A stretch of 64,000 nucleotides of DNA from an uncultured Gammaproteobacteria bacterium (GCA_964553825.1 CAZKLT010000002.1:66068-130067), one strand, 5' to 3'; numbered from the stretch's first letter, positions 5,096-44,897 are shown. Numbers and translations: made by a program. Notes: a model not told the origin generated them from the letters alone.

Positions 5096-5098
5096 ATA

Positions 5099-12374: not shown

Positions 12375-12995
12375 TCATCCTCGTAGACCGCTTGTCAATG
12401 ATGTGAACACCTCACGCAGTAAGAGACGACAAAGAAACTTAATAGTCCTCAGAGCCAGACGCATATCATAATTCCAGCTTTTCTTTTTTATATAGGCGAT
12501 ATCGCTTTTCATCCATGCATCGAACGCCTGTGTATGGTAGCCGTTTACCACCCAGGGGGAGATAATTCCCGGCCGTATCGTATGCCTTTTGCGCTGCCAC
12601 GCGGTCAGCTTTGCTGCTTCCGAAACTGGCAACGGGCGTGGTCCAAACAGCGCCATGTCACCGTGCAATACATTAAAAAGCTGCGGCAACTCATCCAGCC
12701 CTGTATGCGCCAGAAACTTGCCCACACCCGTAAATCGCGGGTCATTGAGCATTTTAAACACCGGACCGTGCGCTTCGTTCTTCTTCCTCAACGCTGCCTG
12801 CTCTTGTTCGGCATTGCGGCGCATCGTGCGAAATTTGTAGAGAAAAAACGGCTTTCCGTTCATACCTATACGCTTCTGCGAGAAAAAAACCGGAAAGCCG
12901 CTCGTAAGCACGATAACCAGACCGATACCGATCTGCATCGGCAAGGAGATGATCACTAACGCCAAAACAAATAGAATAGCAACCGCGTCTTTCAT
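12375..12995 (-). CDS. Polyprenyl-phosphate sugar-1-phosphate transferase (Bac_transf family, WbaP/WcaJ C-terminal-domain type). Initiating glycosyltransferase.
   Basis: 206 aa. N-terminal TM, then conserved motifs SQKRIG.NGKPF..YKFRTM and DELPQLFNVLHGDMALFGPRP. Confidence 0.8.
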   Translation of the reverse strand: MKDAVAILFVLALVIISLPMQIGIGLVIVLTSGFPVFFSQKRIGMNGKPFFLYKFRTMRRNAEQEQAALRKKNEAHGPVFKMLNDPRFTGVGKFLAHTGLDELPQLFNVLHGDMALFGPRPLPVSEAAKLTAWQRKRHTIRPGIISPWVVNGYHTQAFDAWMKSDIAYIKKKSWNYDMRLALRTIKFLCRLLLREVFTSLTSGLRG

Positions 12996-13004: not shown

Positions 13005-13832
13005 ATGCCCTTGCTACACGCTATCCTCCATGCAACCCTCTATGTCGTAGAGTATAATACGCCCATGCAAACCGATGTACGCCACTTTATAGAATTACTG
13101 TGGGCCATGACGGAAAAAGAGCTTCGTGCAAGGTATAAGAATACCATATTCGGTTTCGTATGGCTGATCGTCAATCCGCTTTTGCAAATGCTTGTCATCG
13201 GCTTCATCTTTAACTTCTTTATGAATGAGCCTATCAAAAATTACTTCTTTCATCTGTTTATCGGGCTTCTTTCGTGGAATTTCTTTTCTACATCCATCAC
13301 GAAAGCCACGCCATCGGTCGTCTTTGAGCGTGGACTTATCAAAAAAGCCGCATTTCCAGTCGCGGTCATCCCGCTTTCAATCATTCTGTCCAATATTATC
13401 CATTTTGCCATTGCCTTCGGCATGCTGCTCGTACCCGTGTTCTTCCTCGGGACAATGACCATGCTCACCATACCGCTCACCATCGCGGCGTTGCTTACGC
13501 TCTTTATGTTTACCATCGGCCTTAGCCTTATGACGTGTGCGCTAAACGTACGTTATCGGGACGTGAATTTTTTCATCCAGGCGCTGCTTATTATCTGGTT
13601 TTACGCTACCCCCATCGTCTATTCACTTTCTCAAATACCTCCAGGTACTCAGTGGTTATGGAACTTTAACCCGTTTACCACCATCATTCAGCTTTTACAG
13701 CACGCACTCATCCTGGCAGCGCCACCCGCCATAGGCGCGCTACTGACGAATATTGCCATCGTTATGGCGACGTTTTTCCTTGGCATATATGTATTTAATA
13801 AGGAAGCCAAAAATTTCGACGACTGGGTATGA
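13005..13832 (+). CDS. ABC-2 type polysaccharide/teichoic-acid exporter permease (Wzm/TagG-like)
   Basis: 275 aa with 6 TM helices and an ABC-2 family topology. Its stop overlaps the start of the downstream ATPase (ATGA coupling). Confidence 0.75.
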   Translation: MPLLHAILHATLYVVEYNTPMQTDVRHFIELLWAMTEKELRARYKNTIFGFVWLIVNPLLQMLVIGFIFNFFMNEPIKNYFFHLFIGLLSWNFFSTSITKATPSVVFERGLIKKAAFPVAVIPLSIILSNIIHFAIAFGMLLVPVFFLGTMTMLTIPLTIAALLTLFMFTIGLSLMTCALNVRYRDVNFFIQALLIIWFYATPIVYSLSQIPPGTQWLWNFNPFTTIIQLLQHALILAAPPAIGALLTNIAIVMATFFLGIYVFNKEAKNFDDWV

Positions 13833-14584
13833 AAAAAAATAAAGAGATAGCCATACAGCTTTCCAACATCAGCAAACGCTATGAAATTCACCATGACAAG
13901 CCGACACTGGCTGAAACGTTGCTTCATGGGCGCAACGAACTGTTCTGGGCGCTAAGAGACATTAACCTCTCCATACGCAAGGGTGAACGCGTCGGCATCA
14001 TCGGTCCCAATGGTTCCGGAAAAACAACATTGCTGAAAATCATATCAGGCATTGCAACACCCACAACCGGCACAGTGCAGACAACGGGCCGCCTGGTATC
14101 TCTTATCAACCTTGAAGCTGGTTTTCTCCCAGAATTAAGCGGCATTCAGAATATTTATCTCAATGGTATGATTCTTAACATGAGTAAACGGGAAATCGAT
14201 GCGAAAATAGATGCGATCGTCAAATATGCCGACATCGGCAGATTCGTGGACGCACCCATGTTCACCTATTCAGACGGCATGAAGCTAAAACTGGGCTTCT
14301 CCATCACGATTCATACTAACCCCGACATTCTTATATTGGATGAAAGCATGTATGTCGGAGACCAGAAATTTCAGGATAAGGCGCTGCGAACTATCGAGAA
14401 GTTTTACAAAATGCACACAACGATTCTTATCGTGACACATTGGCTTTCCTATGTGAAAAATAATTGCGACCGCATCATTGTGCTCGAGAAAGGACGAATC
14501 GCCAAAAACGGATCCAAAAAACTCGTCGATAACTTTTACCGATCTATGCAGGGGAAAAATCTTGAGTATACAGCGCCACTGTAA
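13829..14584 (+). CDS. ABC transporter ATP-binding protein (Wzt/TagH-like, short form)
   Basis: Walker A GPNGSGKTT, signature YSDGMKLKLGF, Walker B ILILDES. Confidence 0.8.
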   Translation: MKKNKEIAIQLSNISKRYEIHHDKPTLAETLLHGRNELFWALRDINLSIRKGERVGIIGPNGSGKTTLLKIISGIATPTTGTVQTTGRLVSLINLEAGFLPELSGIQNIYLNGMILNMSKREIDAKIDAIVKYADIGRFVDAPMFTYSDGMKLKLGFSITIHTNPDILILDESMYVGDQKFQDKALRTIEKFYKMHTTILIVTHWLSYVKNNCDRIIVLEKGRIAKNGSKKLVDNFYRSMQGKNLEYTAPL

Positions 14585-14600: not shown

Positions 14601-15479
14601 ATGAACTCGTCTTTCGTTCGACAATCCCATGCCCCAAAAAACTGGTGGAAAAAAGAGTTCGGCAGTTCCTACTATACCCTGTACAATCCCGTCCTAAACC
14701 CGCAGCGCACCAAACAGGAAGTATCATTTATCATTCGCGCGACGGGCCTTGCTCGTCCGACGCGCATTCTAGACGTTGGTTGCGGACATGGCAGGCACGC
14801 CATAGGACTCGCGAAGATGGGACATGACGTTATCGGCATCGATTATTCGACGTATTTTCTTAAAATTGCCCGAACGGAAGCAAAAAAACAGCAGGCCACC
14901 GCTACATTTATCCGTCAGGATATTCGCAGCATGAATTTTTCAGACGAATTTGATGTCGCGCTTTCTATGTATTCTGCTTTTGGATACTTCTCGTTGCGCG
15001 AAAATCTTACGGTCCTTCGCCGGATCCATTCGGCACTCAAGCCGGGCGGAAAATTTCTTCTGGATGTCATCAATGCCGAATGCCATGTCAAACACATCAC
15101 GTCGGCAGGGAAAAAAGTGAAAAAAGGTATTTATCAATTTTCCCAAAACAACGAAATAAACGGCTACAGTGTTCAGGATACCAATATTTATTTCACCAAA
15201 ACGCAGTTGGATTCCTATCATAGGCGTTGGCGAAAAGGAACAAAAACAGGGTCCTATAATTACTATATGTACCAATACACCGTGCCACAGTATCGCGACA
15301 TGCTTAGGCTGACAGGATTTGAAATGCTTAACATTTGGGGAGACTATCAAGGCGCACGATGGAGCCCAAGCAGCTGGCGCACCATTATCCTGTGCTACAA
15401 GCCTCGCAGCGGTGTCTTCGACAAAAACAAAATCGCGCAGTGGATTCAATTACGATTGTTACGCCGATGGCCGGATTGA
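14601..15479 (+). CDS. Class I SAM-dependent methyltransferase
   Basis: Motif I ILDVGCGHGRHA plus post-I acidic GIDYS. The ORF-track ORF 14478..15479 overlaps the ABC ATPase. The first non-overlapping Met (MNSSFVRQ) at 14601 was chosen as the start. Confidence 0.7.
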   Translation: MNSSFVRQSHAPKNWWKKEFGSSYYTLYNPVLNPQRTKQEVSFIIRATGLARPTRILDVGCGHGRHAIGLAKMGHDVIGIDYSTYFLKIARTEAKKQQATATFIRQDIRSMNFSDEFDVALSMYSAFGYFSLRENLTVLRRIHSALKPGGKFLLDVINAECHVKHITSAGKKVKKGIYQFSQNNEINGYSVQDTNIYFTKTQLDSYHRRWRKGTKTGSYNYYMYQYTVPQYRDMLRLTGFEMLNIWGDYQGARWSPSSWRTIILCYKPRSGVFDKNKIAQWIQLRLLRRWPD

Positions 15480-15480: not shown

Positions 15481-16233
15481 ATGACACGTAATTCTGTGAA
15501 AGCTGTACTGCTTTTGGCGGGGGATGGGGGACGGCTTAGGCCGTATACTGCTACTCGACACAAAAGTCTCATCCCGATTGCAGGCAAACCAATTCTCTGG
15601 TATTCGATGATGAATCTCATCCAACTTGGAATCTCAGAGTATATTCTTGTGCTCGGACACCAGGCAGAAAGCGTCAAATCGTATATACAAACGACATTCC
15701 CGAATAGTATGTGCACATATGTCATAAACGACAGATATCGCGAAACGAATGTTGTGTACTCATTTTATCTCGCGTGCACGCATCTTCAAAACTCAGGATT
15801 TCTTCGCGTTGAAGGGGACCTTCTGTATAATAGAGCGATTGCGCGGCGACTTTTGGATTCGGGAAAACAACTTGTGTCAGCCGTTGAGCCGAGAGACAGA
15901 CGATCGGCGGAAGAATTCTGCGTGCAGGTGGACAAAGCGTCACATACGATACTTCGGTATGGGAAAAATCTCCCCAATCGGTCTGTGTATGGTATAGCCC
16001 AGGGGATAGATTTCGTTTCCCAGAAGGCCGCATGGTCAGTGTCGCAGGAGCTAGCGCGGATTGTCGAGGAGGGAAATCTGGATCAATACGCCGAATACGC
16101 ATTCGAGCGACTCTCTCAGCGCAGCGTCTATCACCCTTCGTACTGCGATATACAGGCGAGCGATTTTTGGTGTGACATAGACACCGCTGAGGATATCCTA
16201 TATGCGACAAAACATATTGACAAGCTTACCTAA
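15481..16233 (+). CDS. Sugar/alcohol-phosphate nucleotidyltransferase, LicC-like cytidylyltransferase family (NTP_transferase fold)
   Basis: AVLLLAGDGGRLRPYTATRHKSLIPIAGKPILWY matches the G-rich NTP_transferase N-terminal motif. It is about 250 aa, the same size and pattern as LicC/TarI-type CTP transferases. The internal Met at 15481 was chosen because the upstream part of the listed ORF (15319..) overlaps the methyltransferase. Confidence 0.65.
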   Translation: MTRNSVKAVLLLAGDGGRLRPYTATRHKSLIPIAGKPILWYSMMNLIQLGISEYILVLGHQAESVKSYIQTTFPNSMCTYVINDRYRETNVVYSFYLACTHLQNSGFLRVEGDLLYNRAIARRLLDSGKQLVSAVEPRDRRSAEEFCVQVDKASHTILRYGKNLPNRSVYGIAQGIDFVSQKAAWSVSQELARIVEEGNLDQYAEYAFERLSQRSVYHPSYCDIQASDFWCDIDTAEDILYATKHIDKLT

Positions 16234-17548
16234 AACATTCACGAGTCAAAAAACGGCAATACCATGTTTTATTATGGCCATTGATTCTTCCGTCGGATCT
16301 GGTCGGAATATGGATGCGTACTACGAGAATCTTTCAAATTCCCAGCTGATTATTCCTGTGATGGTATACTCTCGAGGCGAAAGCTACGAGACGGCCCCGG
16401 CGTGGATACAAAACAAAGTCTTATTGGACATGCCCTATGCGACCCATCCCATTGACCTATGCAGGCACAGCCACTGCAAAATTCCTATACACGCGCATAT
16501 AACCCATGACCAATGGATGCGGCAATTTGCAAAATCCGTGCCCATGGTGCGCGCCACAACCTCTGTCGCGCCCATATGGCTCCTGGATATGGTCCTGCCA
16601 ATTATCGAGGCTCCCATGAAGCGTCATATCGTGCAAGTGTTTCACGGTGAACTCTTTCCAATCGGACCGCTTCCGTATATCCGTCCTGAGCACATCGATT
16701 CGATCCTTTCCTACGACCGGCTGCTACTTTCTGGACAGGTCATTGAAGATGCCTTGATGGCATCAGGTGTCATTGATCCTGAAGATACGCGAATCAGAAG
16801 AATCGGCCGCGTGCTTGACGATACGCTCTACAATGGAACGATCAAAAAACAAACGGTGCTTCGGGAGTTTGGCTTGGATCCAAAGCGCAAAACGCTTCTA
16901 TACGCCCCGACGTGGGAATCATTAAAGCTGTGGCCTATGGGAACACGCGCAGATGACGCGCGGTATCTGCGCCGGTTCTGCTCATTTGCGCAGAAACAGA
17001 ACCTAAACGTAATCCTTCGTCCGCATCCAATATCCATTATCCAGTATGGCGTACAACCGCTGATTGCGCGGAGTACAAAACTCTACCGGAACGTATATTT
17101 CGACAATGCCCGACTCTCCTCATACTACGGCCCAAATAAAGCACTAATCGCAGCAGACATCCTGATTACGGACTTATCAAGCATATCTGCTGAATTTTTG
17201 TCATTGGGAAAACCGGTCGTGTACCTGTATCCGGATAGATCTGTTGGCATCTGGGGCGAGGGATTTCCTTCTATCGCAGCGGTTCGGAAGCTCTCCTATA
17301 CCGTGCAGGGAATTTCGGAATTACTATCCGTGCTCACGCGTCTGCTCTCAAAAGAAGAGGATTCCCGAATCATAAAAAAACGCGCTCAGACAGCGGCGTA
17401 TTTTCTGGACCATCGAGACGGATCTTCCGGACGGCGGTTTCGTCAGGAAATGGAACAGCTTGCCCGGGAGCGCACAACAACGGAGTCTCGCATGTTTCTC
17501 CGGTTGTATCGTACTGTTATTCGTCGATTTTCCCGTAAAGATCGCTAG
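16202..17548 (+). CDS. CDP-glycerol/alditol-phosphate glycerophosphotransferase family protein (TagB/TagF-like, Glyphos_transf)
   Basis: C-terminal ILITDLSSISAEFLSLGKPVVYLYPD matches the TagF 'ITDYSS...KP' signature, with a preceding Rossmann-like region. The true start is probably an internal Met (MAIDSS at 16274 or MDAYYEN at 16310), since the ORF as listed overlaps the upstream gene by 32 nt. Confidence 0.65.
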   Translation: MRQNILTSLPKTFTSQKTAIPCFIMAIDSSVGSGRNMDAYYENLSNSQLIIPVMVYSRGESYETAPAWIQNKVLLDMPYATHPIDLCRHSHCKIPIHAHITHDQWMRQFAKSVPMVRATTSVAPIWLLDMVLPIIEAPMKRHIVQVFHGELFPIGPLPYIRPEHIDSILSYDRLLLSGQVIEDALMASGVIDPEDTRIRRIGRVLDDTLYNGTIKKQTVLREFGLDPKRKTLLYAPTWESLKLWPMGTRADDARYLRRFCSFAQKQNLNVILRPHPISIIQYGVQPLIARSTKLYRNVYFDNARLSSYYGPNKALIAADILITDLSSISAEFLSLGKPVVYLYPDRSVGIWGEGFPSIAAVRKLSYTVQGISELLSVLTRLLSKEEDSRIIKKRAQTAAYFLDHRDGSSGRRFRQEMEQLARERTTTESRMFLRLYRTVIRRFSRKDR

Positions 17549-17566: not shown

Positions 17567-18592
17567 ATGGAAACCATGAGGTATAATACCTATTCAGCGC
17601 GAGGAAACATGAACTATCGTACGCTCGGCAAAACAGGATATACCGTATCAGAGATCGGGTACGGAAGCTGGTCATTGGGATCCGACTGGGGGACAGTCAC
17701 GGATGACGACGCACTGCGCGTGCTGGCCAGTCTTCCTGCCGAAGGCATCAACTTTATAGACACGGCGGACATCTATGGCGACGGGAGAAGTGAGCGACTC
17801 ATCGCCCAACATAGGCAAATAACCGGACATCATGCGATCATCGCGACAAAAATCGGCAGGCGTCTTTCCCCGCATGCGGCAGAGGGATATACTGAGAAAA
17901 ACATACGTACCTTCGTTGAAAGAAGTCTTCAGAATCTCAAAACATCGTGTATAGACCTTTTGCAGCTTCATACGCCACCTTCACAGGTGTACTATATGCC
18001 AGACGTGTTTATGTATTTGGATCGTCTCGTGAAACACGGGAAAATTCGCCACTATGGCGTCAGCGTCGAAAAGGTTGAGGAGGGACTAAAGGCAATAGAG
18101 TATCCCGGCGTCGCGACAATCCAGATAATCTTTAACATCGTGCGCCAGCGCCCGATGGAACATCTGCTGAATGAAGCGCATCGCCGTAACGTCGGTGTTA
18201 TTGTACGCGTTCCGCTCGCAAGTGGATTACTTACCGGTAAATACAACATCTTTTCCCGGTTCCCGCGTAATGACCACCGGTCGTTCAACAGGCATGGCGA
18301 GATTTTTGATCGCGGTGAAACATTTGCTGGGGTAAATTTTCTTTCCGGCCTTCGGATTGTAAAAGCGCTACGGGGAGTAAAGCCACCATCGTATACCATG
18401 GCTCAATTTGCATTACGATGGATTCTTATGCATCCCGCCGTATCGACAGTGATCGTCGGAGGAAAAACACCTGCGCAAGTCCATGAAAACGCCCAGGCAA
18501 GCGGCATGCCAAGGCTTACCAAGAGAACCATGCAGCAGGTAAGTGCGCTATATGCAAAATTCGTTAAGCCTCAGGTGCATGATCGCTGGTAG
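17567..18592 (+). CDS. Aldo/keto reductase family oxidoreductase
   Basis: YRTLGKTGYTVSEIGYGSWSLG ... IDTADIYG ... HYGVS are AKR signatures. The start may be the internal MNYRTLG at 17609. Confidence 0.8.
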   Translation: METMRYNTYSARGNMNYRTLGKTGYTVSEIGYGSWSLGSDWGTVTDDDALRVLASLPAEGINFIDTADIYGDGRSERLIAQHRQITGHHAIIATKIGRRLSPHAAEGYTEKNIRTFVERSLQNLKTSCIDLLQLHTPPSQVYYMPDVFMYLDRLVKHGKIRHYGVSVEKVEEGLKAIEYPGVATIQIIFNIVRQRPMEHLLNEAHRRNVGVIVRVPLASGLLTGKYNIFSRFPRNDHRSFNRHGEIFDRGETFAGVNFLSGLRIVKALRGVKPPSYTMAQFALRWILMHPAVSTVIVGGKTPAQVHENAQASGMPRLTKRTMQQVSALYAKFVKPQVHDRW

Positions 18593-19823
18593 GTGCATAC
18601 GGGAAACAAAATCGTGCGGTTGAATATTTTTTGGCAAGCTGGGCAGCATCTTTACTCACATCTTTTCCGTCAAGAATACGCTGTATAAGCACCCCCAGCA
18701 GATTCATGTCTGCCTCTTTCATGCCCCGTTTTGTTGCTTCCTGCGTCCCAAGGCGAATGAACGTACGGCCACCAAGCGCGTTACTTGTGCTTATCGATAG
18801 GCCGTTCTGTGCGAAGCGCCGGACTATTGAGGAGCCCTCGGCATCGACGAGGAGGTGAACCTGATGATTATGGCTATATACGCCGTTTATCGACCTGACG
18901 TGTAGCCCGTTTTTCGCAAGCGCGCTACCAAGCGCCTGAGAGTTGCGAACAATCTGCCGCGCATACCCACGGCCATACATGTCCATTTCTAGCACCGTAA
19001 TCGCCAGGGCCATGAGGCTATTTGTGTGGACCGTCGAGTACGTATTCCGGACGATGCTATCCATTTCAGTCGCCAACGACTTGTCACGAAACGCAAGTAT
19101 GCCCTTATGCGGCCCGGGAAATGTCTTGTGCGTATTGGCAACAATAACGTCCGCCCCTTCCCGAAGGGGGGATTGAAATTCGCCGCCCATAATTAATCCA
19201 AGCGTGTGACTGGCATCATAGATAAGAAGCACGTCATGCGGAAGACCGTTTCGCAACTGGCGAAGCGGATGCGGCTGAAGCAGCACAGAGGTGTCCAGAT
19301 ACACGATGCGTGCTTTTTTTCTGCGGGCCAGATAAACCGTCTTCGCGACATCAAGAGTCAGCCGAGAGATATCATACGCTGCGTATACATGCTTTCTGCC
19401 GATGCTTTCTGCTATGTGCTTCGTGCAAAAATGACCACCATCCTCCTCACGGACGGACATTACGGTATCGCCCGGCCGAGTAGATCCCAGAAGCGCACAC
19501 AGCATTGCGTGCGCTCCGGACAGACATTCAAGGTTCACATCCTCGGCGGCCAGCATTTTTTTAGCTTTTGCCTTTGCACGGTCGAGAATATCGTGAAGTC
19601 GCGGGTAGGTAATGGCCGAAAAGTCTCCGAAGTTATTCGCAGTCATAACGCCCCCGATCCCTCTTCCGAAATCATATCGCAGCCCCATGGGTGACCGGTA
19701 AAACCGCATTGCAAGCGGGGAGAGTATGTTCTGGTTGGCGGTTAGATTGACCATCCGGTCGTTATACGACTCAATGTCCTGGAGCGTACGAAAAAGGCGG
19801 TTGGCTGTCAGCGAATCAAACAT
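18564..19823 (-). CDS. Divergent serine hydroxymethyltransferase-fold PLP enzyme (SHMT/threonine-aldolase-like)
   Basis: N-terminal MVNLTANQNILSPLA corresponds to SHMT 'IELIASENFTSPAV'. The PLP-lysine region VIVANTHKTFPGPHKGILAF corresponds to SHMT 'TTTHKTLRGPRGG'. It is divergent from housekeeping GlyA. Confidence 0.6.
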   Translation of the reverse strand: MFDSLTANRLFRTLQDIESYNDRMVNLTANQNILSPLAMRFYRSPMGLRYDFGRGIGGVMTANNFGDFSAITYPRLHDILDRAKAKAKKMLAAEDVNLECLSGAHAMLCALLGSTRPGDTVMSVREEDGGHFCTKHIAESIGRKHVYAAYDISRLTLDVAKTVYLARRKKARIVYLDTSVLLQPHPLRQLRNGLPHDVLLIYDASHTLGLIMGGEFQSPLREGADVIVANTHKTFPGPHKGILAFRDKSLATEMDSIVRNTYSTVHTNSLMALAITVLEMDMYGRGYARQIVRNSQALGSALAKNGLHVRSINGVYSHNHQVHLLVDAEGSSIVRRFAQNGLSISTSNALGGRTFIRLGTQEATKRGMKEADMNLLGVLIQRILDGKDVSKDAAQLAKKYSTARFCFPYAPTSDHAPEA

Positions 19824-19859
19824 ATCTGCGATTGTAGCACAGCCCTTGACGCTGTCTGA

Positions 19860-20897
19860 TTATTTTTTCTCCCGAAGCCTACGATCTACTGTTCGCAAAA
19901 CACCAAGAAAACTGTCCGTGTGAACCCGCATACCGATCGTTACGCGCATATAGACCTCGGTCATAAATTTGGCTATCAGGACATCCTGATTGTCCAATGC
20001 ATCCACCAATAACGGCTTTGCCTTTGCATTAACTTTTACTAATACCAGGTTAGCACGGGAATCGAATGCCACGAAATGGTCAAGGGCATTGACGGACCGA
20101 ATAAAGTATTCCCTATCAGAGATAATGGTCCGTGCTAATTTACGATAGTACATCCGGGCCGTAAGGGCAGCCAAGGCAACCTCTTCCAATATCCTATTTC
20201 CTCCGAGGTACGGATCCTGATACCGCAACATTGCTTTGATGTTTTTACCGCACAATGCGTACCCCATACGCAGTCCTGCCAGGGCGTACTGTTTTGAGAA
20301 GCTTCTAAGTATCATAAGATTGCCAAATTGATCCAGGAGGCGTCGAAAACCCGCTGCATCATATTTATCATCAAAACCAAAATATGCCTCATCAAGAATA
20401 ACAAGAGTGTTACTGGAAACGCGACGAAGGATTCTTTTGGCATCGGCCACAGAGATAACATTGCCGCTCGGGTTGTTTGGCGTCGTGATAAGCACCAGTT
20501 GCGGCGCGTACCGATGAATTTTTTTTACGCAATCCTCTATATCAAATGAAAACGCGCTCTTACCCTCTGTGATCCGGAAGGTGTGAAGCTTGATATTGCG
20601 AAATGCAAGGTATTTCGCATAAAAGCCGAAGTGAAGTTCATGGGTAAGCACACTGCTTTTTCCAACCTGAAGGCTATTAAAGACAAGGCGCAATATCTCT
20701 TCAGCGCCGTATCCGATAAGAATACGGCTCCGTGGCAAGGAAAATCGCTTAGCCAACTCCGGAGCCAGAATGGATCCCGAATACCCATCAAAATACCGTG
20801 CGAGCTTGTCAGCGGATGCGGCATGCAGCACCTGTAGGCACACCGGAGCAGGGCCAAGAACAACTTCGTTTCGATTCAAAAGCAACTGGTTTTTCAT
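19860..20897 (-). CDS. Class II PLP aminotransferase of the HisC/CobD family (histidinol-phosphate aminotransferase / threonine-phosphate decarboxylase-like)
   Basis: PLP-lysine motif SFSKQYALAGLRMGYAL (compare HisC SFSKAYGLAGLRVGY), plus TPNNPSG upstream. Confidence 0.7.
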   Translation of the reverse strand: MKNQLLLNRNEVVLGPAPVCLQVLHAASADKLARYFDGYSGSILAPELAKRFSLPRSRILIGYGAEEILRLVFNSLQVGKSSVLTHELHFGFYAKYLAFRNIKLHTFRITEGKSAFSFDIEDCVKKIHRYAPQLVLITTPNNPSGNVISVADAKRILRRVSSNTLVILDEAYFGFDDKYDAAGFRRLLDQFGNLMILRSFSKQYALAGLRMGYALCGKNIKAMLRYQDPYLGGNRILEEVALAALTARMYYRKLARTIISDREYFIRSVNALDHFVAFDSRANLVLVKVNAKAKPLLVDALDNQDVLIAKFMTEVYMRVTIGMRVHTDSFLGVLRTVDRRLREKK

Positions 20898-20904
20898 GCC
20901 GGTA

Positions 20905-22218
20905 CTAGAAAATTACATGCGTCTTTGGCTTGTCGAAAATAAATTCCGGTGTAAGCGACGCGTTGTATGCGCCTATGCAATAGTAGACGATGACATCACC
21001 TTCAGACACTGATGGCAACCATCCGCGGAAAAGCACATCGTCTTCTCGCAGCGTAGCGCCATAAATAATCGTCGGCTGTATGTTTCCATTTCGCTGCTGA
21101 AATGAAGGGGAAAAAATCCGCAGTATTTGCGGCCGATAGGGGATAAGCGACAACATGGTCGTTGCGCCGTCAGCAAATACTGTTTGCTTCATGCCTTTAT
21201 GTACGCGCTGAACGCGTGTTACAAACACCGCGGCATCATCAACCAGATATCTTCCCGGCTCGATCATAAGCCTGAGCTTGCCAGCATCAGGATATTGCGT
21301 GCGCATTGCTTCCCAGATGGTTTGTGCATATTCGTCCGTTGTATACGCATTCCACGACTGTCTTTCGTATGGCTTGCGGCCGTGGGATTTCATGCCACCA
21401 CCGCAATTCACATAACGAGCGTGTAGCCCCGCCTTCTCCATTTGAGTGAGAGTTTCAGCTGCGGCCCGAGCCGCATTTCCAAACACGTCAAGCTGATCAA
21501 TATCAGTGCCCGTATGCACATGTACACCCTCAAATCGTATATAACGTTTTTTCAGCGTTACCAACACCGGAAGACTTATAAGGTCTGCCCGCGAAAAACC
21601 GAAATGACTGTGCCCCATGCTATGACCGCTGAGATTAAGACGGCATCCTATCCGGACACGAAGCTTTACTGTCCGGGAAAACTCCTCCAGTCGCATTAAC
21701 TCGGCTCGGTTGTCCACCTGAACAAGCACGTTATGCCTCATGGCAGTAACAAGGGAGGATTTTGTTTTGTTGGGGCCGTTGAACACGATTTTTTCACCTG
21801 CATATCCATACCGCAGTGCTAAGTGAAGTTCTCGCTCTGATCCAACGTCTGCGTACGTCCCGACGCGGCGAAGCGCAGATGCGGGAGCGTAATTAGTTTT
21901 AAATGAATACGCAATCGCCACCTTCTTCCAGTATCGGGAAAGGCTTCGTTTCACGCTGTCAAGGCGCTGCTCCATAATGCACATGTCAAGCAGATAGGCC
22001 GGCGTTTTTTCCGTACGGGCAAACTTTTTGATGTATGGCGCGATACGATCGTCAGAAGGAAAATGTGAAAAATTCACATCATCCCTGCCGACAAATATCG
22101 GATGGTTCCGTAGATAATACAGGCTTGCCGCTATCATAATTCCTTTACTTTTTGGATAATGCCGAGACCTGCTGCCACAGAGAGTTTGACTTTGGTTTGG
22201 ATCGGAATTGTTCGCCAA
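20905..22218 (-). CDS. PLP-dependent decarboxylase, Orn/DAP/Arg decarboxylase (alanine-racemase-fold, group IV) family
   Basis: PLP-Lys region IAYSFKTNYAP (compare LysA YAVKAN), Gly-rich CGGGM, and a C-terminal beta-domain. The start may be the internal MIAASLYYL at 22140, which removes the overlap with the upstream gene. Confidence 0.7.
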   Translation of the reverse strand: MANNSDPNQSQTLCGSRSRHYPKSKGIMIAASLYYLRNHPIFVGRDDVNFSHFPSDDRIAPYIKKFARTEKTPAYLLDMCIMEQRLDSVKRSLSRYWKKVAIAYSFKTNYAPASALRRVGTYADVGSERELHLALRYGYAGEKIVFNGPNKTKSSLVTAMRHNVLVQVDNRAELMRLEEFSRTVKLRVRIGCRLNLSGHSMGHSHFGFSRADLISLPVLVTLKKRYIRFEGVHVHTGTDIDQLDVFGNAARAAAETLTQMEKAGLHARYVNCGGGMKSHGRKPYERQSWNAYTTDEYAQTIWEAMRTQYPDAGKLRLMIEPGRYLVDDAAVFVTRVQRVHKGMKQTVFADGATTMLSLIPYRPQILRIFSPSFQQRNGNIQPTIIYGATLREDDVLFRGWLPSVSEGDVIVYYCIGAYNASLTPEFIFDKPKTHVIF

Positions 22219-22958
22219 AGCTTCCAGACCCCATAGGGGAGTTGTTCTTTGATAACACGCACATCCGTGTCATGCAACAGCATGAGGCCTCCTTTTTTCA
22301 ATCTGGGCCATGCATTGTTGAAATCTTTTTTAACGCCCTCATACGTATGATCTCCGTCAATATAGATATATTCGTATGATTTTCTCGTTTTTCTAAAATA
22401 TTCATCCGTTGTCATTACGTGTGTCGTTATGTGCGTGTCAAGCCCGAGAAATGAGAAATGCACCTGGGGATTTTGCGAACGCCAGAACCCTATTCCACCC
22501 CAATGCTTCGTTCCGTTGGCATCAGACTCAGAATATCCGGCATCCACAAAATCGACATGGCCACGTCCGACATCCCTGCAAGCCATAGCGCATAACGCGG
22601 GTATGAATCCTTTTTTCGACCCTATGCAAAGTATACGGGCCGGCTTCATGTTTACAATTAAGGCATGGTGCAGCAGGCCGAAGCCCAACAGACCGCGCCT
22701 GGCATCGGCATTCTGCAGAAGATATCCGTCAAAATACTGAAGAACTTCGTATGCAAGCGATGCGTCGTATAAAAAACGTTGATTCAGGACAGGAACGCGA
22801 AAAAAATGGCGGAATAATATGCGCACAGTATCGCGAATTCCCAGTTCCGAAAAACTTTTCGAAAACTCTCCGATTCTAAAGGTACCCGCAAACATACGCG
22901 GATTATATCTTAGACTATATGGCTGAACAAGGACAGTAAAACACAAATTTTTTTCCAA
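22134..22958 (-). CDS. SAM-dependent methyltransferase, Methyltransf_24 / TylF-MycF-like O-methyltransferase family (paralog A)
   Basis: ILCIGSKKGFIPALCAMAC and YIYIDGDHTYEGVKKDF...GGLMLLHD. It is a clear paralog of the divergently transcribed 23049..23753 gene. Confidence 0.6.
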   Translation of the reverse strand: MEKNLCFTVLVQPYSLRYNPRMFAGTFRIGEFSKSFSELGIRDTVRILFRHFFRVPVLNQRFLYDASLAYEVLQYFDGYLLQNADARRGLLGFGLLHHALIVNMKPARILCIGSKKGFIPALCAMACRDVGRGHVDFVDAGYSESDANGTKHWGGIGFWRSQNPQVHFSFLGLDTHITTHVMTTDEYFRKTRKSYEYIYIDGDHTYEGVKKDFNNAWPRLKKGGLMLLHDTDVRVIKEQLPYGVWKLWRTIPIQTKVKLSVAAGLGIIQKVKEL

Positions 22959-23048
22959 CTACAAACGCATCTGCATCAAATCGATTCCACTTGTCAGCTA
23001 CACGAAGAAGGGTATAATACGCATGTCAGTTTAACGCAAACGATTGGA

Positions 23049-23753
23049 TTGGTTATGAACTATGCACTCTCTTCACTATTTCCACTCGTAAACACATCCG
23101 TTGCACAAGACATTATCAACTCATACGCACGCGAGCATAATTGGCACGAGCTGGACGTACGTACCGGAAACCTGGGGTACGGATGGATTCACTACGCATT
23201 TATTCGGCTCATTCGTCCCAAACGTGTCCTATGTGTCGGAAGCCGTTACGGGTTCATACCAATTCTCTGTGCCATGGCGTGCAAAGATAATGGCACGGGC
23301 ATTGTCGATTTCGTCGACGCGGGATTCGATGAGCGAGACCCGAAAAATCCCGATCACTGGGGAGGAGTGGGGACGTGGCGGGAAATTAATCCGGATCGAT
23401 ACTTCCGCAAGCACTCGGTCCATAAGCATATCGTACTGCACGTTCAAACAACTGCCCAGTTCAACGCCGCTTATCCTGATAGACACTGGGACTACATATA
23501 TATCGATGGCGACCATTCGTATAAAGGATCTCGATTCGACTTCAACACATTCTGGCCGAGACTCAATCGAGGAGGAATGCTCTCTCTGCATGACATTCGC
23601 GTGAAACGAATCAACAAGCTGGTTTTAGGAGTACACCGGTTATGGAACGAAATCAAGCGCAAGCACCCCCACGAAACACTTGAATTGCCTGGAGCCTACG
23701 GACTTGGCATTTTGACGAAGCCTCAAAGGTCCTCTCTGCTCGTAGACGTATGA
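23049..23753 (+). CDS. SAM-dependent methyltransferase, Methyltransf_24 / TylF-MycF-like family (paralog B)
   Basis: VLCVGSRYGFIPILCAMAC and YIYIDGDHSYKGSRFDF...GGMLSLHD. Paralogous to 22134..22958. Confidence 0.6.
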   Translation: MVMNYALSSLFPLVNTSVAQDIINSYAREHNWHELDVRTGNLGYGWIHYAFIRLIRPKRVLCVGSRYGFIPILCAMACKDNGTGIVDFVDAGFDERDPKNPDHWGGVGTWREINPDRYFRKHSVHKHIVLHVQTTAQFNAAYPDRHWDYIYIDGDHSYKGSRFDFNTFWPRLNRGGMLSLHDIRVKRINKLVLGVHRLWNEIKRKHPHETLELPGAYGLGILTKPQRSSLLVDV

Positions 23754-25835: not shown

Positions 25836-26828
25836 ATGAATAGGAGAGTGCGCGCTGTTATCGTGGGGGCAGGATTATTTGGCACGAAAAGACTGCGCGC
25901 ATGTCTTGCCATGCCGACAGAGTTTGACGTCGTAGGCGTTGTAGACATATTGCCGGATCAACGGGAAAAAATTCGGTCTCAGTTCCACGTGCCCACCTTC
26001 GGACACATTTCAGAAACGCCTAAAGACGTCGATCTGGCAATCATATCGACTCCTAATGCGTTCCATGAACGCCTTACCGTTGAATCCCTTGCGCATGGTA
26101 TGAACGTACTGTGTGAAAAGCCTCTTGCTCCCACGGTAAATGAATGCCGAAGAATAATACGAGCGGCAAAAAAATACCATAAGCTCGTCAAGACCGGCTC
26201 GAATCATAGATTTTTCCCGACGGTTCAAAAAGCAAAAGAACTGTTTGAGCAAGGTACAATCGGAAAACTGCTACTTTTTAAAGCGAGCATTGGTATAAAC
26301 GGAGAGCGGGTAGCCAACAAATGGTTTTGGAATCACCGTATGTCTGGAGGAGGATCCTTCATCGACAATGGGTGTCATGTCCTGGATATCGCTCGCATGT
26401 TTATGGGAAATTTTACCAAATGCAGCGCGCACATGACCAACACATACTGGAAAGGCACCTCAGTAGAAGACGTCGGCTCTGCAATCTTCGTGACCCGCGA
26501 TGACAGACAGGCTGTCATCACTTCCTCCTGGATTCAGTGGGCGGGATACTTGCACATCGAACTTTGGGGGGAGAAAGGCTATATTATTATTGATTCAACA
26601 ACGCACGACATCGTCACCATGGGAAACAAAGAGGGAGTCGTAACAACCTATGACTATTCCAACGAACCCAAAGATTCATATCATCGCGAACTTCTGTATA
26701 TGAAGCGCTGCATCTTAACGAAAACAGATCCGCACCCGGACGCGATGGACGGTTCATATGTTATTGGTATGATTGAAAGCGCATATCGTTCGTCACAGAA
26801 AAAATCATGGACAACCATCCGCCCGTAA
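25836..26828 (+). CDS. Gfo/Idh/MocA family NAD(P)-dependent sugar oxidoreductase (WbpB-like UDP-sugar 3-dehydrogenase candidate)
   Basis: N-terminal Rossmann motif VRAVIVGAGLFGTKR, then the family motif NVLCEKPLA. Confidence 0.7.
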   Translation: MNRRVRAVIVGAGLFGTKRLRACLAMPTEFDVVGVVDILPDQREKIRSQFHVPTFGHISETPKDVDLAIISTPNAFHERLTVESLAHGMNVLCEKPLAPTVNECRRIIRAAKKYHKLVKTGSNHRFFPTVQKAKELFEQGTIGKLLLFKASIGINGERVANKWFWNHRMSGGGSFIDNGCHVLDIARMFMGNFTKCSAHMTNTYWKGTSVEDVGSAIFVTRDDRQAVITSSWIQWAGYLHIELWGEKGYIIIDSTTHDIVTMGNKEGVVTTYDYSNEPKDSYHRELLYMKRCILTKTDPHPDAMDGSYVIGMIESAYRSSQKKSWTTIRP

Positions 26829-27931
26829 TTCCAGTCAACCGCCCAAGCGTACCCAAAAACGCAAAAAAATATCTTGACACATGTGTATCGTCAGGATGGT
26901 TTTCTTCGGAAGGACCGTATGTCAAAACGTTTGAAAAAGCGTTTGCAGACACACTCGGCGTTTCCTACGCCTCAGCAACAAGCTCGGGTACGGCATCCCT
27001 TCACCTTGCCCTGCTTGCCCTGGACATCGGAAAGGGGGATGAGGTTATCCTGCCGGCAACCACCATCGCATCGTGTTATTTCGCCATATGGTACACCGGT
27101 GCGGTAGCGGTGCCTGTTGATATCACTTCCGATACGTACACCATAGACCCTTCGCTCATTGAGCGCGCCATTACCAAACGGACGAAAGCAATTATGGTCG
27201 TGCATTTATTTGGACATCCCTGCGACATGGACCCCATTATGGAAATTGCCCGTAAGCATAATTTTGCAGTTATAGAGGACGCTGCAGAGGCCCATGGAGC
27301 GCGTTATAAGGGAAGGAGGGTTGGAACAATCGGAGACATTGGCATTTACAGTTTTTACGCAAATAAGATCGTCACTACCGGGGAGGGTGGAATGGTTGTC
27401 AGCAATAACAAAACACTTATAGAGCGGGTGAATTCTCTCAAATCTCTGAACCACTCCTCCACGCGATTTATCCACGTCGGCATCGGCTATAACTACCTTA
27501 TGAGCAATATGCAGGCGGCTGTAGGACTTGCAAGTCTGGAAGAACTCGGCCAGTCTCTAAGGAAGAAAAAAAATATGGCCAAAAACTACAAAAGACTCCT
27601 GTCAGATACCCCAGGCCTCATTCTGCCGGTCGAAAAGCCCTGGGCAGACAGTGTTTACTGGATGTACGCAGTGCGCATTGATCATAAAAAAACAAAAAAA
27701 ACTCGCGATGAGGTAATGAGCTATCTCCTAAGGAATGGTGTCCAGACGCGAACCTTTTTTTACTCCCCTCGCACCGCATTTAAAAAATTAGCATTTTTTG
27801 TAAATGAAAAATTTCCCGTAGCCGAGGAGGTAGAGAAAACAGGATTTTACCTGCCATCTGGCCTGGGCAATACTCATAAAGAATTTCGTGCAGTGGCAAA
27901 GGCACTAACCATAAGAACTAATTCAATTTGA
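26807..27931 (+). CDS. DegT/DnrJ/EryC1/StrS-family sugar aminotransferase (WbpE/ArnB-like)
   Basis: Motif SSGTASLHLAL and a PLP-lysine context ...FYANKIVTTGEGG. Typical of the sugar transaminase family. The start overlaps the upstream oxidoreductase. Confidence 0.75.
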   Translation: MDNHPPVIPVNRPSVPKNAKKYLDTCVSSGWFSSEGPYVKTFEKAFADTLGVSYASATSSGTASLHLALLALDIGKGDEVILPATTIASCYFAIWYTGAVAVPVDITSDTYTIDPSLIERAITKRTKAIMVVHLFGHPCDMDPIMEIARKHNFAVIEDAAEAHGARYKGRRVGTIGDIGIYSFYANKIVTTGEGGMVVSNNKTLIERVNSLKSLNHSSTRFIHVGIGYNYLMSNMQAAVGLASLEELGQSLRKKKNMAKNYKRLLSDTPGLILPVEKPWADSVYWMYAVRIDHKKTKKTRDEVMSYLLRNGVQTRTFFYSPRTAFKKLAFFVNEKFPVAEEVEKTGFYLPSGLGNTHKEFRAVAKALTIRTNSI

Positions 27932-28103: not shown

Positions 28104-29636
28104 CTACATACTAATTCTTGAGTAAATCGTGGCTCTTGTCTCAGGAAATATTTTTACTTTTACCACATCTGGACAACGACCCCTATTAAGGATGTCAATA
28201 AAAACGACTTCGGGAAATGCTGACTCCAGCAAACACGCCTCTCGTTCGTTTGAAGCAATAATCGGTGGAGCGCTTTTATAGCGTCTTGCATACCACAAAA
28301 GACTTATTTGAGCTCCCTGACCTGGCTCATCAGAGCTATACGTTACTATTTGCTTTGTGGTAATTTTACTTGCCATAACAACAGCATCTTTAAAACCATA
28401 AATAGATTTTGAGAAATTTCTTGGAAGACCAAGCGCGCCCTGCATCTGTCCATTTATCCATGAATAAGTAAAAACGCTAGTCAGTGCAATAACATATATT
28501 ATTGATGCCCTACGTTTCAGTCGAAATAAGGGAGTAACTAAAAGAAAGTACATAATCGGCAAAGCAAAAAGATAGTGTCGCACATGAAACGATGCATATT
28601 GACTATATAAAGCTATTGCAATAACTATCGTAATTGACCACAAAAACAAACTCAGGAAATAAACGGTTTTTTTCGTAAAAAAACAAAGTCCATAGACTAT
28701 GATTCCCAACAAGAAAATAAACTGTGCTCTTTCAGCCAACAAAACTTCATGCATATGTACAAGCGGACTCATAACGAATGAAAAAGTAGGAATCGTCTGA
28801 GGGACGGTAGCAATAAGCATTTTGTGAAAAAATATCACAAATAGTCCAACAAAAATGCCAAGCATGAATATCGCCTGACGTCTATTCTTTTTATCGCACA
28901 GACTCCATACTAAATATGGAATGACTATAATATGCTGGTAAATGGAGTTTACGGTAAAAATTACGACAATAGGAAAATTTTTTGTTGAGTAAAAAGACCC
29001 ATAGTCCATCATACGTACAGCGAGAATAACACCAAGAAATGATAATGCATAGAATCTGACTTCATAAGAGTATTGCAGTAAAAACGGATTTAAAAAATAC
29101 AATAAGAATATACATATTCCTATAAACATCTTTTCGAGATAGCTTCTTTTATAAGAAGCCTGATTTAGGGCATAAAAAACTAAAATTATCCCTGCAACAA
29201 TATGGAAAATCATATACGGAATTCGATAAATAAATTCCTGGTAATCCTTTGAAAAGAAAATTACTATGTGATTCCAGGCCCACATGTTCCAATAATCCAA
29301 AGGCAATGCTGAGGCATGCCACATAAACACTGATCGAGCGATCAAAGAAAAAGGGGATTCTGCAATCTGAATTACTCCAACTTCGTCACTCCACAATTCA
29401 AGAGAATTGATATTGTGAAAGTTAATGAGGTAATATGAAGCACCTATAGCCCAGAGTGCAAGTCCTATAAATCGCCGATCAAACGAAAGGTTTTTTAAAT
29501 GCAAAATGATTACATTCAAAAAAATATATAATAGTACAATGTACCATAATAAAGACAGGCTAGAAGCATAAAAAAGAAGAATAATGGCAACAATAAACAC
29601 GAAATTCTTAACTATCGATGGACTCAAATTTGCCAT
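28104..29636 (-). CDS. GT-C fold membrane glycosyltransferase (ArnT/PMT-like, GT39/GT83-type). Low-GC gene.
   Basis: 510 aa with about 12 TM helices. An acidic motif LWSDEVG in the first extracytoplasmic loop is the DE motif of GT-C enzymes. The coding sequence is conspicuously AT-rich compared with its neighbours. Confidence 0.5.
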   Translation of the reverse strand: MANLSPSIVKNFVFIVAIILLFYASSLSLLWYIVLLYIFLNVIILHLKNLSFDRRFIGLALWAIGASYYLINFHNINSLELWSDEVGVIQIAESPFSLIARSVFMWHASALPLDYWNMWAWNHIVIFFSKDYQEFIYRIPYMIFHIVAGIILVFYALNQASYKRSYLEKMFIGICIFLLYFLNPFLLQYSYEVRFYALSFLGVILAVRMMDYGSFYSTKNFPIVVIFTVNSIYQHIIVIPYLVWSLCDKKNRRQAIFMLGIFVGLFVIFFHKMLIATVPQTIPTFSFVMSPLVHMHEVLLAERAQFIFLLGIIVYGLCFFTKKTVYFLSLFLWSITIVIAIALYSQYASFHVRHYLFALPIMYFLLVTPLFRLKRRASIIYVIALTSVFTYSWINGQMQGALGLPRNFSKSIYGFKDAVVMASKITTKQIVTYSSDEPGQGAQISLLWYARRYKSAPPIIASNEREACLLESAFPEVVFIDILNRGRCPDVVKVKIFPETRATIYSRISM

Positions 29637-35329: not shown

Positions 35330-35333
35330 ATTT

Positions 35334-44841: not shown

Positions 44842-44845
44842 ACTA

Positions 44846-44864: not shown

Positions 44865-44897
44865 ATACTCCCGCCCGACTCGCCCTGGTGTAATCCT

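Follow-up and report, generated by a model that had tools for sequence, protein, structure and literature searches.

What would an operon that sets three pyridoxal phosphate (PLP) dependent enzymes and a methyltransferase side by side be making in the middle of a cell-envelope glycan locus? The question is raised by a 64,000-nucleotide stretch of DNA labelled as coming from an uncultured Gammaproteobacteria bacterium (GCA_964553825.1, CAZKLT010000002.1:66068-130067; this whole stretch is hereafter the window), whose minus strand carries at 18564-22958 four co-directional open reading frames (ORFs) in the order Methyltransf_24 methyltransferase (MT24a), ornithine/diaminopimelate (Orn/DAP)-type decarboxylase, HisC-like aminotransferase and a protein of the serine hydroxymethyltransferase (SHMT) fold. 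Our answer, to which we would give a probability of about 0.45, is that this operon is an accessory head-group module within a locus for a wall-teichoic-acid-like glycopolymer exported by an ATP-binding cassette (ABC) transporter, in a bacterium of the candidate phyla radiation (CPR) type, and our best guess for its product is an amino-alcohol or amino-alditol phosphate head group.

An operon of three PLP enzymes and a methyltransferase

The four genes are packed tightly, with 36 bp between the aminotransferase and SHMT-like ORFs (19823/19860) and 7 bp between those for decarboxylase and aminotransferase (20897/20905), which is essentially the spacing of 8-37 bp given in a preliminary description of this DNA; the third junction is not a spacer but an overlap of 4 nt. 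There, the decarboxylase ORF as listed (20905-22218) shares 85 nt with MT24a, yet a start codon farther in, at 22137, forms the sequence ATGA with the stop codon of MT24a, and a public gene call on the same contig yields the identical 410-aa product, so that ATG 22137 is the most likely start. This packing (36 bp, 7 bp, ATGA overlap) argues that the four genes form an operon, and they are translationally coupled or nearly so. At its distal end, the SHMT-like gene overlaps the 3' end of a convergent aldo-keto reductase gene. Four consecutive minus-strand genes of the families named in the preliminary description are thus borne out by ORFs and Pfam, as is the presence of three PLP enzymes, two of fold I (of different subtypes) and one of fold III. 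The label TylF-like fits MT24a loosely, since the protein belongs to Methyltransf_24 and the TylF family is not among its Pfam matches at E<=0.01.

To place the operon in context, proteins of the window were searched by tblastn in 83 loci that had been fetched from around SHMT-like relatives (referred to below by L or P handles). Two of these, the metagenomic loci L090 and L091, hold the four genes in the same order with products 52-64% identical to those of the window (their MT24a orthologs are 274 aa long, too). Between relatives, ratios of nonsynonymous to synonymous substitution (dN/dS) lie at 0.04-0.13 across all four genes (0.09 for MT24a), which means strong purifying selection. Given the shared order at such protein divergence and the low dN/dS, the arrangement is no accident. 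Scans of the DNA for promoter and terminator consensus gave counts not above those in shuffled sequence, except for one promoter-like site (22991-23018, 11/12 matches) that would serve a second Methyltransf_24 gene (MT24b) divergent from the operon; tRNA and Rfam scans returned no matches.

The SHMT-fold protein resembles threonine transaldolases

The last gene of the operon codes for a protein with a Pfam SHMT match (1.6e-18) that does not reach the cutoff of the SHMT model PRK00011 (174 bits; cutoff 335). Its top NCBIfam match is fluorothreonine transaldolase (FTase, TIGR04506) at 250 bits against a cutoff of 650 and over model positions 4-407 of 609 only, and among solved structures the L-threonine transaldolase of obafluorin biosynthesis, ObiH, ranks first (7k34; 170 bits, 8.6e-49), followed by Methanocaldococcus jannaschii SHMT (2.4e-43) and, at 1e-22 or weaker, by bacterial SHMTs. 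In a motif alignment of archaeal SHMTs from the fetched loci and a hand-entered Escherichia coli GlyA sequence, the position of the SHMT catalytic Glu is taken by Phe52 ('RYDFG'), where the archaeal SHMTs and GlyA read 'AEG'; ObiH carries Cys there. Also gone is the folate/substrate-loop motif 'G(K/x)R(Y/F)Y(G/Q)G' (RYYGG; 'GKRYYGG'), in place of which stands a longer, unrelated loop, 'GRGIGGVMTANNFGDFSAIT'. The active-site Glu (E. coli E57, Thermus thermophilus E53, in 'KY(A/S)EG') is conserved in all SHMTs, and its exchange for Gln nearly abolishes catalysis that depends on tetrahydrofolate (PMC11323337). What the window protein does keep is the PLP lysine (Lys233 in 'NTHKTFPGP', with its THKT motif; invariant across 39 relatives) and, likewise invariant in the family alignment, His131, Asp203 and Arg357. 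Together, these align to H131, D204, K234 and R366 of ObiH, residues that are catalytic or PLP-binding in threonine transaldolases (PMC10495429).

In line with this, a neighbour-joining tree (315 columns, 100 bootstraps; ObiH representing the characterised transaldolases) joins the whole window family to ObiH and to three homologs from actinomycetes (bootstrap 99) and separates this clade from the archaeal SHMTs, that of M. jannaschii included; within the clade, relatives from glycan loci form a subclade with a support of 80. From the lost Glu and RYYGG motif, the retained ObiH residues and this clade, we read the protein as a folate-independent enzyme of the aldolase/transaldolase type and not as an SHMT, an assignment that points to C-C bond chemistry. 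Placement against GlyA, which the preliminary description had proposed as a check, therefore speaks against GlyA/SHMT and for a grouping with ObiH. Gln29 ('TANQN' versus 'TANEN'), which marks the same subclade as a Cys-to-Leu exchange in the decarboxylase (see below), aligns to E. coli E36; it was considered as the SHMT catalytic Glu and rejected because that residue (E57) aligns to Phe52. Proteins of this family that share 40-47% identity with it are common among CPR genomes.

An unusual decarboxylase and a HisC-family aminotransferase

The decarboxylase matches Pfam Orn_Arg_deC_N (5.7e-32, 111 bits) and, weakly, Orn_DAP_Arg_deC, stays below the cutoff of the lysA equivalog (TIGR01048; 157.9 versus 297.9 bits) and has the siderophore enzyme FslC as its top solved relative (7kh2, 2.4e-29). 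Its family is rare (22 database relatives at E<=1e-15). While the PLP lysine (AYSFKTN) and the HxH, GGG, EPGR and GAY motifs are kept, as in LysA, ornithine decarboxylase and FslC, the LysA motif 'GPxCESxD', with Cys and the Glu/Ser that serve the distal DAP centre, reads 'GATLREDD', with Leu for the active-site Cys and Arg for the LysA Glu. The motif 'YGATLRE(D/E)D' is common to the window, L004, L090 and L091, and Leu stands for Cys in relative P0242 as well; the wider family mostly keeps the Cys ('YGxSC(R/K/Q)E(D/N)D'). With a dN/dS of 0.04-0.10 between L004, L090 and L091, the gene is not decaying. The C360A mutant of ornithine decarboxylase is reportedly diverted to decarboxylation-dependent transamination. 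Cys360, the residue equivalent to the one lost here, governs product formation in that enzyme (PMC5518511). One may speculate, by analogy, that the Cys-less decarboxylase might itself perform decarboxylation-dependent transamination and so supply an aldehyde acceptor.

As for the aminotransferase, it matches Pfam Aminotran_1_2 (2.2e-33, 116 bits) and reaches neither the hisC equivalog (TIGR01141; 203.8 bits, cutoff 276.55) nor that for CobD (TIGR01140; 123.4 bits, cutoff 290.55). Structures of the CobD type score lower against it than HisC structures, and the higher score with the HisC model makes it more likely that the protein acts as an aminotransferase than in the manner of CobD. The protein is one of about 50 sequences (40-57% identity) that make up a compact, distinct subfamily, which occurs chiefly in CPR bacteria and whose named members are CPR metagenome-assembled genomes (MAGs) of Giovannonibacteria and Magasanikbacteria. 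SFSK (with the PLP Lys), PNNP and DEAY motifs are intact. Of the two phosphate/carboxylate-binding arginines of HisC structures, R322 and R335 in E. coli, the latter has a counterpart here ('MRVT'); in place of the former stands Ala or Ser, after which comes a conserved Lys ('I(S/A)KF'). With one Arg kept and a conserved Lys beside the other, a substrate with an anionic group is plausible. Locus L092 gives no evidence that the HisC-like gene and the class I methyltransferase of the window (see below) belong together, as the methyltransferase encoded there has only the SAM-binding region in common with the latter (29% over 94 residues).

Genes for probable activation, transfer and export adjoin the operon

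Downstream of the operon and convergent with it lies a block of genes (Table 1) whose products could activate, transfer and export a phospho-alcohol. The LicC-like protein has LicC as top solved relative (1jyk, 4.4e-12), followed by the 2-aminoethylphosphonate cytidylyltransferase PntC (6pd1), and matches the model for inositol-1-phosphate cytidylyltransferase (IPCT) over its full length, so by similarity it probably is a cytidylyltransferase. Its ATG (15481) lies one base past the stop codon of a class I S-adenosylmethionine (SAM) methyltransferase gene, which always adjoins the LicC-like gene in relatives. The methyltransferase aligns over its full length with its top solved relative 9RI2 (3.1e-23), identified as NmbA, an N-methyltransferase that acts on the bacillithiol amine (PMC12719100); by this resemblance, the window protein probably is an amine N-methyltransferase. 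The gene for a TagF-like transferase is conserved in L001, L004, L091, L102 and the P0005 locus. Orthologs of the reductase (63-71% identity) adjoin the SHMT-like gene in L001, L004, L090 and L091; in L102 and the P0005 locus, the corresponding place is taken by a gene of the same family. The ABC exporter genes are 64-81% identical in L004, and at the edge of the locus L002, L004 and L091 have kept the gene for an initiating phosphoglycosyl transferase, too. Hence, the LicC-like and TagF-like genes and the extra methyltransferases at 14601 and 23049 that had been noted nearby are indeed present and are conserved partners, the latter as a divergent second Methyltransf_24 gene; the divergent arrangement of MT24 and decarboxylase genes recurs in L103, L004, L090, L091 and the P0005 locus.

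MT24a itself scores 66.2 bits with PF13578 (5.4e-18; gathering threshold 26.3) and has no NCBIfam match. Its only match among solved structures is 6g7d (E 0.005), which we take to be a mannoside O-methyltransferase; going by that identity, MT24a may act on the glycan rather than on an amine.

Table 1. Positions of the operon, its neighbours and further glycan genes, counted from the first letter of the window unless a locus is named
Feature	Position	Strand	Remarks
MT24b, second Methyltransf_24	23049..23753	+	Pfam 58 bits; divergent from operon
MT24a, Methyltransf_24 SAM-dependent methyltransferase	22134..22958	-	274 aa; TTG start; first operon gene
Fold-III (Orn/DAP/Arg-type) PLP decarboxylase, Cys-less	20905..22137	-	410 aa; Pfam Orn_Arg_deC_N
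Cys-less decarboxylase copies in relatives	L004:8683-9918; L090:7495-8730; L091:8705-9940
HisC-family class I/II PLP aminotransferase	19860..20897	-	345 aa; Pfam Aminotran_1_2
SHMT-fold PLP enzyme, transaldolase-type clade	18564..19823	-	419 aa; Pfam SHMT; last operon gene
Aldo-keto reductase	17567..18592	+	Pfam Aldo_ket_red 207 bits; convergent with operon
TagF-like CDP-alditol/alcohol phosphotransferase	16202..17548	+	Pfam Glyphos_transf 58 bits
LicC/IPCT-like nucleotidyltransferase	15481..16233	+	Pfam NTP_transferase and DUF6564
Class I SAM methyltransferase	14601..15479	+	Pfam Methyltransf_25/11
ABC-2 permease and TagH-like ATPase (glycopolymer exporter)	13005..14584	+	Pfam ABC2_membrane, ABC_tran; TagH model 183-186 bits
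Bac_transf initiating phosphoglycosyl transferase	12375..12995	-	Pfam 177 bits
GFO/IDH/MocA and DegT genes	25836-27931
Wzy_C (O-antigen ligase/polymerase-like) proteins, three	3428-4630; 33256-34647; 38932-40941
Second ABC ATPase	34646-36113

Related loci are mosaics of cassettes

Among the 83 loci, only the closest SHMT-like relatives (54-64% identity) share the glycan locus, and all seven with readable context (L001, L002, L004, L090, L091, L102, P0005) are syntenic glycan loci; a metagenome scan added one further close relative, L093. Relatives of the four genes occurring together outside any glycan locus, which the preliminary description had named as grounds for an amino-acid or cofactor pathway instead, were not found: every close SHMT-like relative with readable context sits in a glycan locus, and the gene order is kept in L090 and L091 and in part in L004 and the P0005 locus. 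In the window and in six of the seven related loci, L002 being the exception, the SHMT-like gene directly adjoins the block of reductase, TagF-like and LicC-like genes. In L091, L004, L001, L102 and the P0005 locus, it is convergent with a series of group II decarboxylase (Pyridoxal_deC), reductase, TagF-like, LicC-like and methyltransferase genes, after which comes the ABC exporter; L090 shows the beginning of this series before its contig ends.

What varies is the set of amine enzymes. In the window, the order is MT24b, divergent from the operon, and then MT24a-decarboxylase-HisC-like-SHMT-like, accompanied by no further PLP or amine gene. L091 and L090 keep this order and carry a Pyridoxal_deC gene (448 aa) between the SHMT-like and reductase genes; L004 has the window order minus the HisC-like gene, a 448-aa ORF at the Pyridoxal_deC position (assigned to the family by position only) and a second fold-III decarboxylase, which contains the Cys. 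The P0005 locus has decarboxylase, MT24 and SHMT-like genes and, in addition, a Pyridoxal_deC gene. In L001 and L102, Pyridoxal_deC and a gamma-glutamylputrescine-synthetase-like gene replace MT24a-decarboxylase-HisC-like, and Aminotran_4, a second Pyridoxal_deC and a second fold-III decarboxylase are found as well. Finally, L002 (Gottesmanbacteria) runs SHMT-like-cupin-GT2, with reductase, Pyridoxal_deC, MT24 and Aminotran_4 genes at a distance. Group II decarboxylases, which in these relatives belong to the histidine decarboxylase/MfnA group, are thus present beside the reductase gene in all seven related loci (in L004 by position) and absent from the window, where the intact C-terminus of the reductase indicates a clean absence. 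That the HisC-like gene replaces the group II decarboxylase was considered and rejected, as L090 and L091 carry both.

The constant theme of these mosaic loci, we conclude, is amine production beside a block for phospho-alcohol activation and transfer, and the swapping of decarboxylases and aminotransferases among otherwise syntenic loci suggests a serotype-like diversification of the decoration. The gamma-glutamylputrescine-synthetase-like genes that adjoin the SHMT-like gene (L001:8530-9876, L102:8552-9892; 328 bits, below the cutoff) suggest that in these two variants the amine is gamma-glutamylated.

More distant relatives of the SHMT-like protein have surroundings of their own. Paenibacillus sp. 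FSL H8-0122 (L084:8938-14861) and a Saccharibacteria MAG (L086:8001-11116) share a trio of genes for an SHMT-like protein (45-48% identity), a 417-424-aa Aminotran_1_2 protein and GTP cyclohydrolase II, accompanied by HAD and GT2 genes, which looks like an uncharacterised pathway in its own right. The Paenibacillus locus also has a fusion of a glutamyl-tRNA synthetase (GluRS)-like part with glutamyl-tRNA reductase, which could supply an amino-aldehyde acceptor. In a Solirubrobacterales MAG (L088:4080-6449), a 789-aa GFO/IDH/MocA-SHMT fusion lies beside a stand-alone SHMT-like gene and one for a class I methyltransferase.

A possible head-group pathway and its competitors

How might these enzymes work together? 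In the pathway that we have in mind, the SHMT-fold enzyme would act as a PLP aldolase or threonine transaldolase that joins a glycyl unit and a small carbonyl metabolite into a beta-hydroxy-alpha-amino acid, and the decarboxylase would convert this into an amino-alcohol or amino-alditol phosphate of 1-amino-2-ol structure. Since no kinase is encoded, the carbonyl acceptor would probably be phosphorylated; put differently, if the LicC-like enzyme uses the product of the PLP enzymes, the phosphate must come from a phosphorylated precursor. The aminotransferase might contribute an optional tailoring or precursor step on a carbonyl, and the NmbA-like methyltransferase may methylate the amine. Activation of the phospho-alcohol with CTP would fall to the LicC-like enzyme, its installation on the polymer as a phosphodiester to the TagF-like one, and the MT24 enzymes would methylate the product or the glycan. 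Like transamination, N- or O-methylation would be optional. The amine theme of the relatives (group II decarboxylases, a second fold-III decarboxylase, a gamma-glutamyl-amine-ligase-like protein) counts in favour of such a head-group module. In its most specific form, the proposal would have a threonine-transaldolase-type enzyme, the first at work on an envelope glycopolymer, forge a C-C bond between glycine and a phosphorylated aldehyde, the decarboxylase turn the result into an amino-alditol phosphate, and this be CDP-activated and attached or polymerised by the TagF-like protein to give a cationic teichoic-acid analogue in CPR bacteria; taken as a whole, this chain of steps strikes us as quite unlikely.

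A number of our results weigh against a single, fixed pathway. No substrate can be read from sequence: the data establish the gene content, the operon, its conservation under selection, the non-housekeeping character of each PLP enzyme and the glycan-locus setting of close relatives; substrates, step order, the direction of the aldol reaction and phosphodiester attachment we infer. Given that the product-controlling Cys is lost, the decarboxylase may not be a simple decarboxylase. The reductase has no step assigned to it in the model; that it could remove acetaldehyde, were threonine the donor, is speculation. No gene for a kinase, LicD, phosphatase or amide ligase adjoins the operon, which leaves the source of the phosphate an assumption. 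L004, L001, L102 and the P0005 locus do without the HisC-like gene, a relative of which (53% identity) lies outside any glycan locus in L092. In L103, an unrelated glycan locus that lacks SHMT-like, reductase, TagF-like and LicC-like genes, MT24 and decarboxylase genes (the latter with 33% identity) stand next to ABC permease and ATPase genes. L002 has no TagF-like, LicC-like or N-methyltransferase gene within 10 kb of its SHMT-like gene, from which it follows that the SHMT-like product need not be CDP-activated. Distant members of the SHMT-like family (41-48% identity) keep other company, namely Aminotran_1_2 and GTP cyclohydrolase II. And when L004 and L090 are compared, their decarboxylases are 98% identical and their SHMT-like proteins only 79%, which together with a HisC-like gene found in L090 alone marks a recombination boundary between the decarboxylase and SHMT-like genes. 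We therefore regard the operon as a union of two or more cassettes, [MT24-decarboxylase] and [(HisC-like)-SHMT-like]. So the single head-group pathway of the preliminary description keeps its glycan context and its LicC-like and TagF-like partners and has to cede its unity, just as its SHMT-fold member turns out to be of the transaldolase type.

This opens the way for the main competing scenario, with two unrelated functions and a product that is not CDP-activated: MT24 and decarboxylase would modify or terminate the ABC-exported chain, aminotransferase and SHMT-like protein would make an amino-acid-derived acyl or amide substituent (e.g. on a 3-amino sugar made by the GFO/IDH/MocA and DegT proteins) and reductase, LicC-like and TagF-like proteins an ordinary poly(alditol phosphate). 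The solitary MT24 and decarboxylase genes beside the exporter in L103, the recombination boundary and the gene content of L002 are all as this would have it, the annotated ORFs between 9.7 and 41 kb include the GFO/IDH/MocA and DegT genes but no recognised acetyltransferase, and a set of reductase, cytidylyltransferase and TagF-like protein mirrors the TarJ/TarI/TarL logic of wall teichoic acid pathways. We nonetheless hold it to be unlikely: the part of the locus inside the window contains no ATP-grasp protein, acyl-CoA ligase, acyltransferase or amide ligase, the four (nearly) translationally coupled genes stay together in three loci, and the SHMT-like gene keeps its place against the reductase/TagF-like/LicC-like block nearly throughout.

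Alternatively, the module could make a free small molecule - an amino alcohol, a polyamine, a choline- or ethanolamine-like precursor of lipids or osmolytes, or a beta-hydroxy-amino-acid natural product that is secreted - and merely be parked in the island. ObiH, LipK and FTase are, after all, transaldolases of secondary-metabolite pathways. The gamma-glutamylputrescine-synthetase-like gene of the relatives is typical of amine handling, the HisC-like subfamily also occurs outside glycan loci, and the threonine transaldolase types that PMC10495429 lists all use small-molecule aldehyde acceptors. Set against this are the lack of non-ribosomal peptide synthetase, polyketide synthase, ligase or dedicated exporter genes, the position of all close SHMT-like relatives examined between glycosyltransferases and a TagH-type exporter and the conserved adjacency to LicC-like and TagF-like genes, and so we think it improbable that the product leaves the glycan pathway. 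That the operon is nothing but the housekeeping SHMT, HisC and LysA of a reduced genome, in the island by chance, we consider very improbable indeed, as the preliminary description did, since - even though Pfam and NCBIfam give these families as best or near-best matches and members with 40-47% identity abound in CPR genomes - every equivalog score (lysA, hisC, CobD, SHMT) is far under its cutoff (158 versus 298 bits for lysA, 204 versus 277 for hisC), the SHMT Glu and RYYGG are gone, LysA CESxD reads TLREDD, the decarboxylase family is rare with its 22 matches, Paenibacillus, where one would expect a normal glyA, has its family member in a specialised cluster and no other histidine or lysine pathway genes occur in the 64 kb.

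The wider glycan island

An island of glycan and envelope genes some 43 kb long (about 1.8-44.8 kb) dominates the window, itself part of a 177-kb contig. Besides the locus, the island includes yidC/jag (4643-5947) in its left part and also holds GT2 and GT4 glycosyltransferase genes, a WecG/TagA gene, an epimerase gene and further GT2 genes. Three Wzy_C proteins and a second ABC ATPase argue that probably more than one glycan system is encoded. Next to the island come dnaA (44757-46259) and dnaN (the pair spans 44757-47566), which together with a cumulative GC-skew minimum near 45 kb indicates that the replication origin probably abuts the glycan locus. To the right of dnaN, positions 48602-57288 hold a set like that of a Gram-positive type IV secretion system (T4SS), comprising an M23 peptidase protein, a VirB4/TraG-like ATPase, a PrgI-like protein and a VirD4/TraD-like coupling protein, and then a CTP_transf_like gene. 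Judged by this gene content and by its nearest SHMT-like relatives, which are MAGs of Gottesmanbacteria and other Patescibacteria (two carry the label 'uncultured Gammaproteobacteria'), the source of the DNA most likely is a bacterium of the ultra-small CPR (Patescibacteria) type.

Three further genes of the island deserve mention. A 510-aa ORF on the minus strand (28104-29636) has no Pfam match and lies where GC drops to 36% over 2 kb, from about 48% in the surroundings; it may code for a horizontally acquired, serotype-specific membrane protein, e.g. a polymerase. At 40925-41965 (minus strand) lies a match to the plant-type 'reversibly glycosylated polypeptide' family (PF03214, 1.2e-44), unusual in bacteria; the family is made up of UDP-arabinopyranose mutases, so that one of the glycans might contain a furanose sugar. 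The third, at the edge of the glycan locus (41962-44841, minus strand), encodes a 959-aa protein with a PQQ-like beta-propeller and DUF5060 that is conserved in L001 (1-2772), L002 (1-349) and L102 (1-2723).

Comparison with known systems and implications

With the L-threonine transaldolases (ObiH/ObaG, LipK, FTase), the window enzyme has in common the SHMT-like fold-I PLP scaffold, the loss of the SHMT Glu and folate-loop motif and the retained set of His, Asp, Lys and Arg. Its alignment with ObiH takes in nearly all of its length, but at low identity; its loop 1, the specificity loop, differs and has a clade-specific insertion of three residues, and the extra C-terminal domain of the 609-residue FTase model is missing. 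Above all, it is encoded in a cell-wall glycan locus and not in an antibiotic cluster, with an activity that is predicted. Similarly, the decarboxylase differs from LysA, ornithine decarboxylase and FslC in that its family is rare and glycan-linked and has lost the Cys in one subclade.

For the combination of PLP enzymes with a surface glycan there is a precedent, to which the preliminary description had correctly pointed: the HS:2 capsule of Campylobacter jejuni, where Cj1437, a dihydroxyacetone phosphate aminotransferase, makes serinol phosphate, Cj1436, a serine phosphate decarboxylase, makes ethanolamine phosphate, and the amide ligase Cj1438C and the phosphatase Cj1435 are used as well (PMC12409886). 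Set side by side via their descriptions, both systems have a HisC/CobD-family PLP enzyme in a surface-glycan locus that provides, or in our case would provide, an amine for decoration; the window lacks the amide ligase and phosphatase and has instead LicC-like and TagF-like proteins, a transaldolase type and a fold-III decarboxylase. The Lic phosphocholine pathway of pneumococcal teichoic acids (LicA/B/C/D) shares with it a LicC-like gene and a teichoic-acid-like context. Unlike that pathway, the annotated ORFs of the window offer no match to a LicA-type kinase, a LicB-type transporter or a LicD-type transferase (with Pfam, none to the choline-kinase (APH-type) or LicD families), and the amine appears to be made de novo and to be methylated by the NmbA-like enzyme. 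The pathways that make CDP-alditols for wall teichoic acids and capsules, TarI/TarJ/TarL and Gtp1-3 (CDP-2-glycerol), likewise combine a reductase, a cytidylyltransferase, a TagF-family transferase and a TagG/H-type exporter, but the window has an aldo-keto reductase in place of one of the medium-chain dehydrogenase/reductase type, a LicC/IPCT-like enzyme in place of an IspD-like one and, flanking these, PLP enzymes and an N-methyltransferase.

Among the papers on threonine transaldolases and polysaccharides that were judged by title and abstract, none deals with a transaldolase in glycan synthesis, and a transaldolase-type enzyme conserved in a cell-wall glycan locus appears to be undescribed in that material. 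If our reading is right, SHMT-fold transaldolases would extend from antibiotic and fluorometabolite pathways and from the biocatalysis of beta-hydroxy amino acids to cell-wall biosynthesis, there would be a kinase-free route to amine-bearing phospho-alcohol head groups and a naturally Cys-less fold-III decarboxylase would become available for the study of reaction specificity. For CPR/Patescibacteria, whose surface polymers are chemically uncharacterised and probably mediate attachment to host cells, such a module would be one way in which these polymers are decorated.

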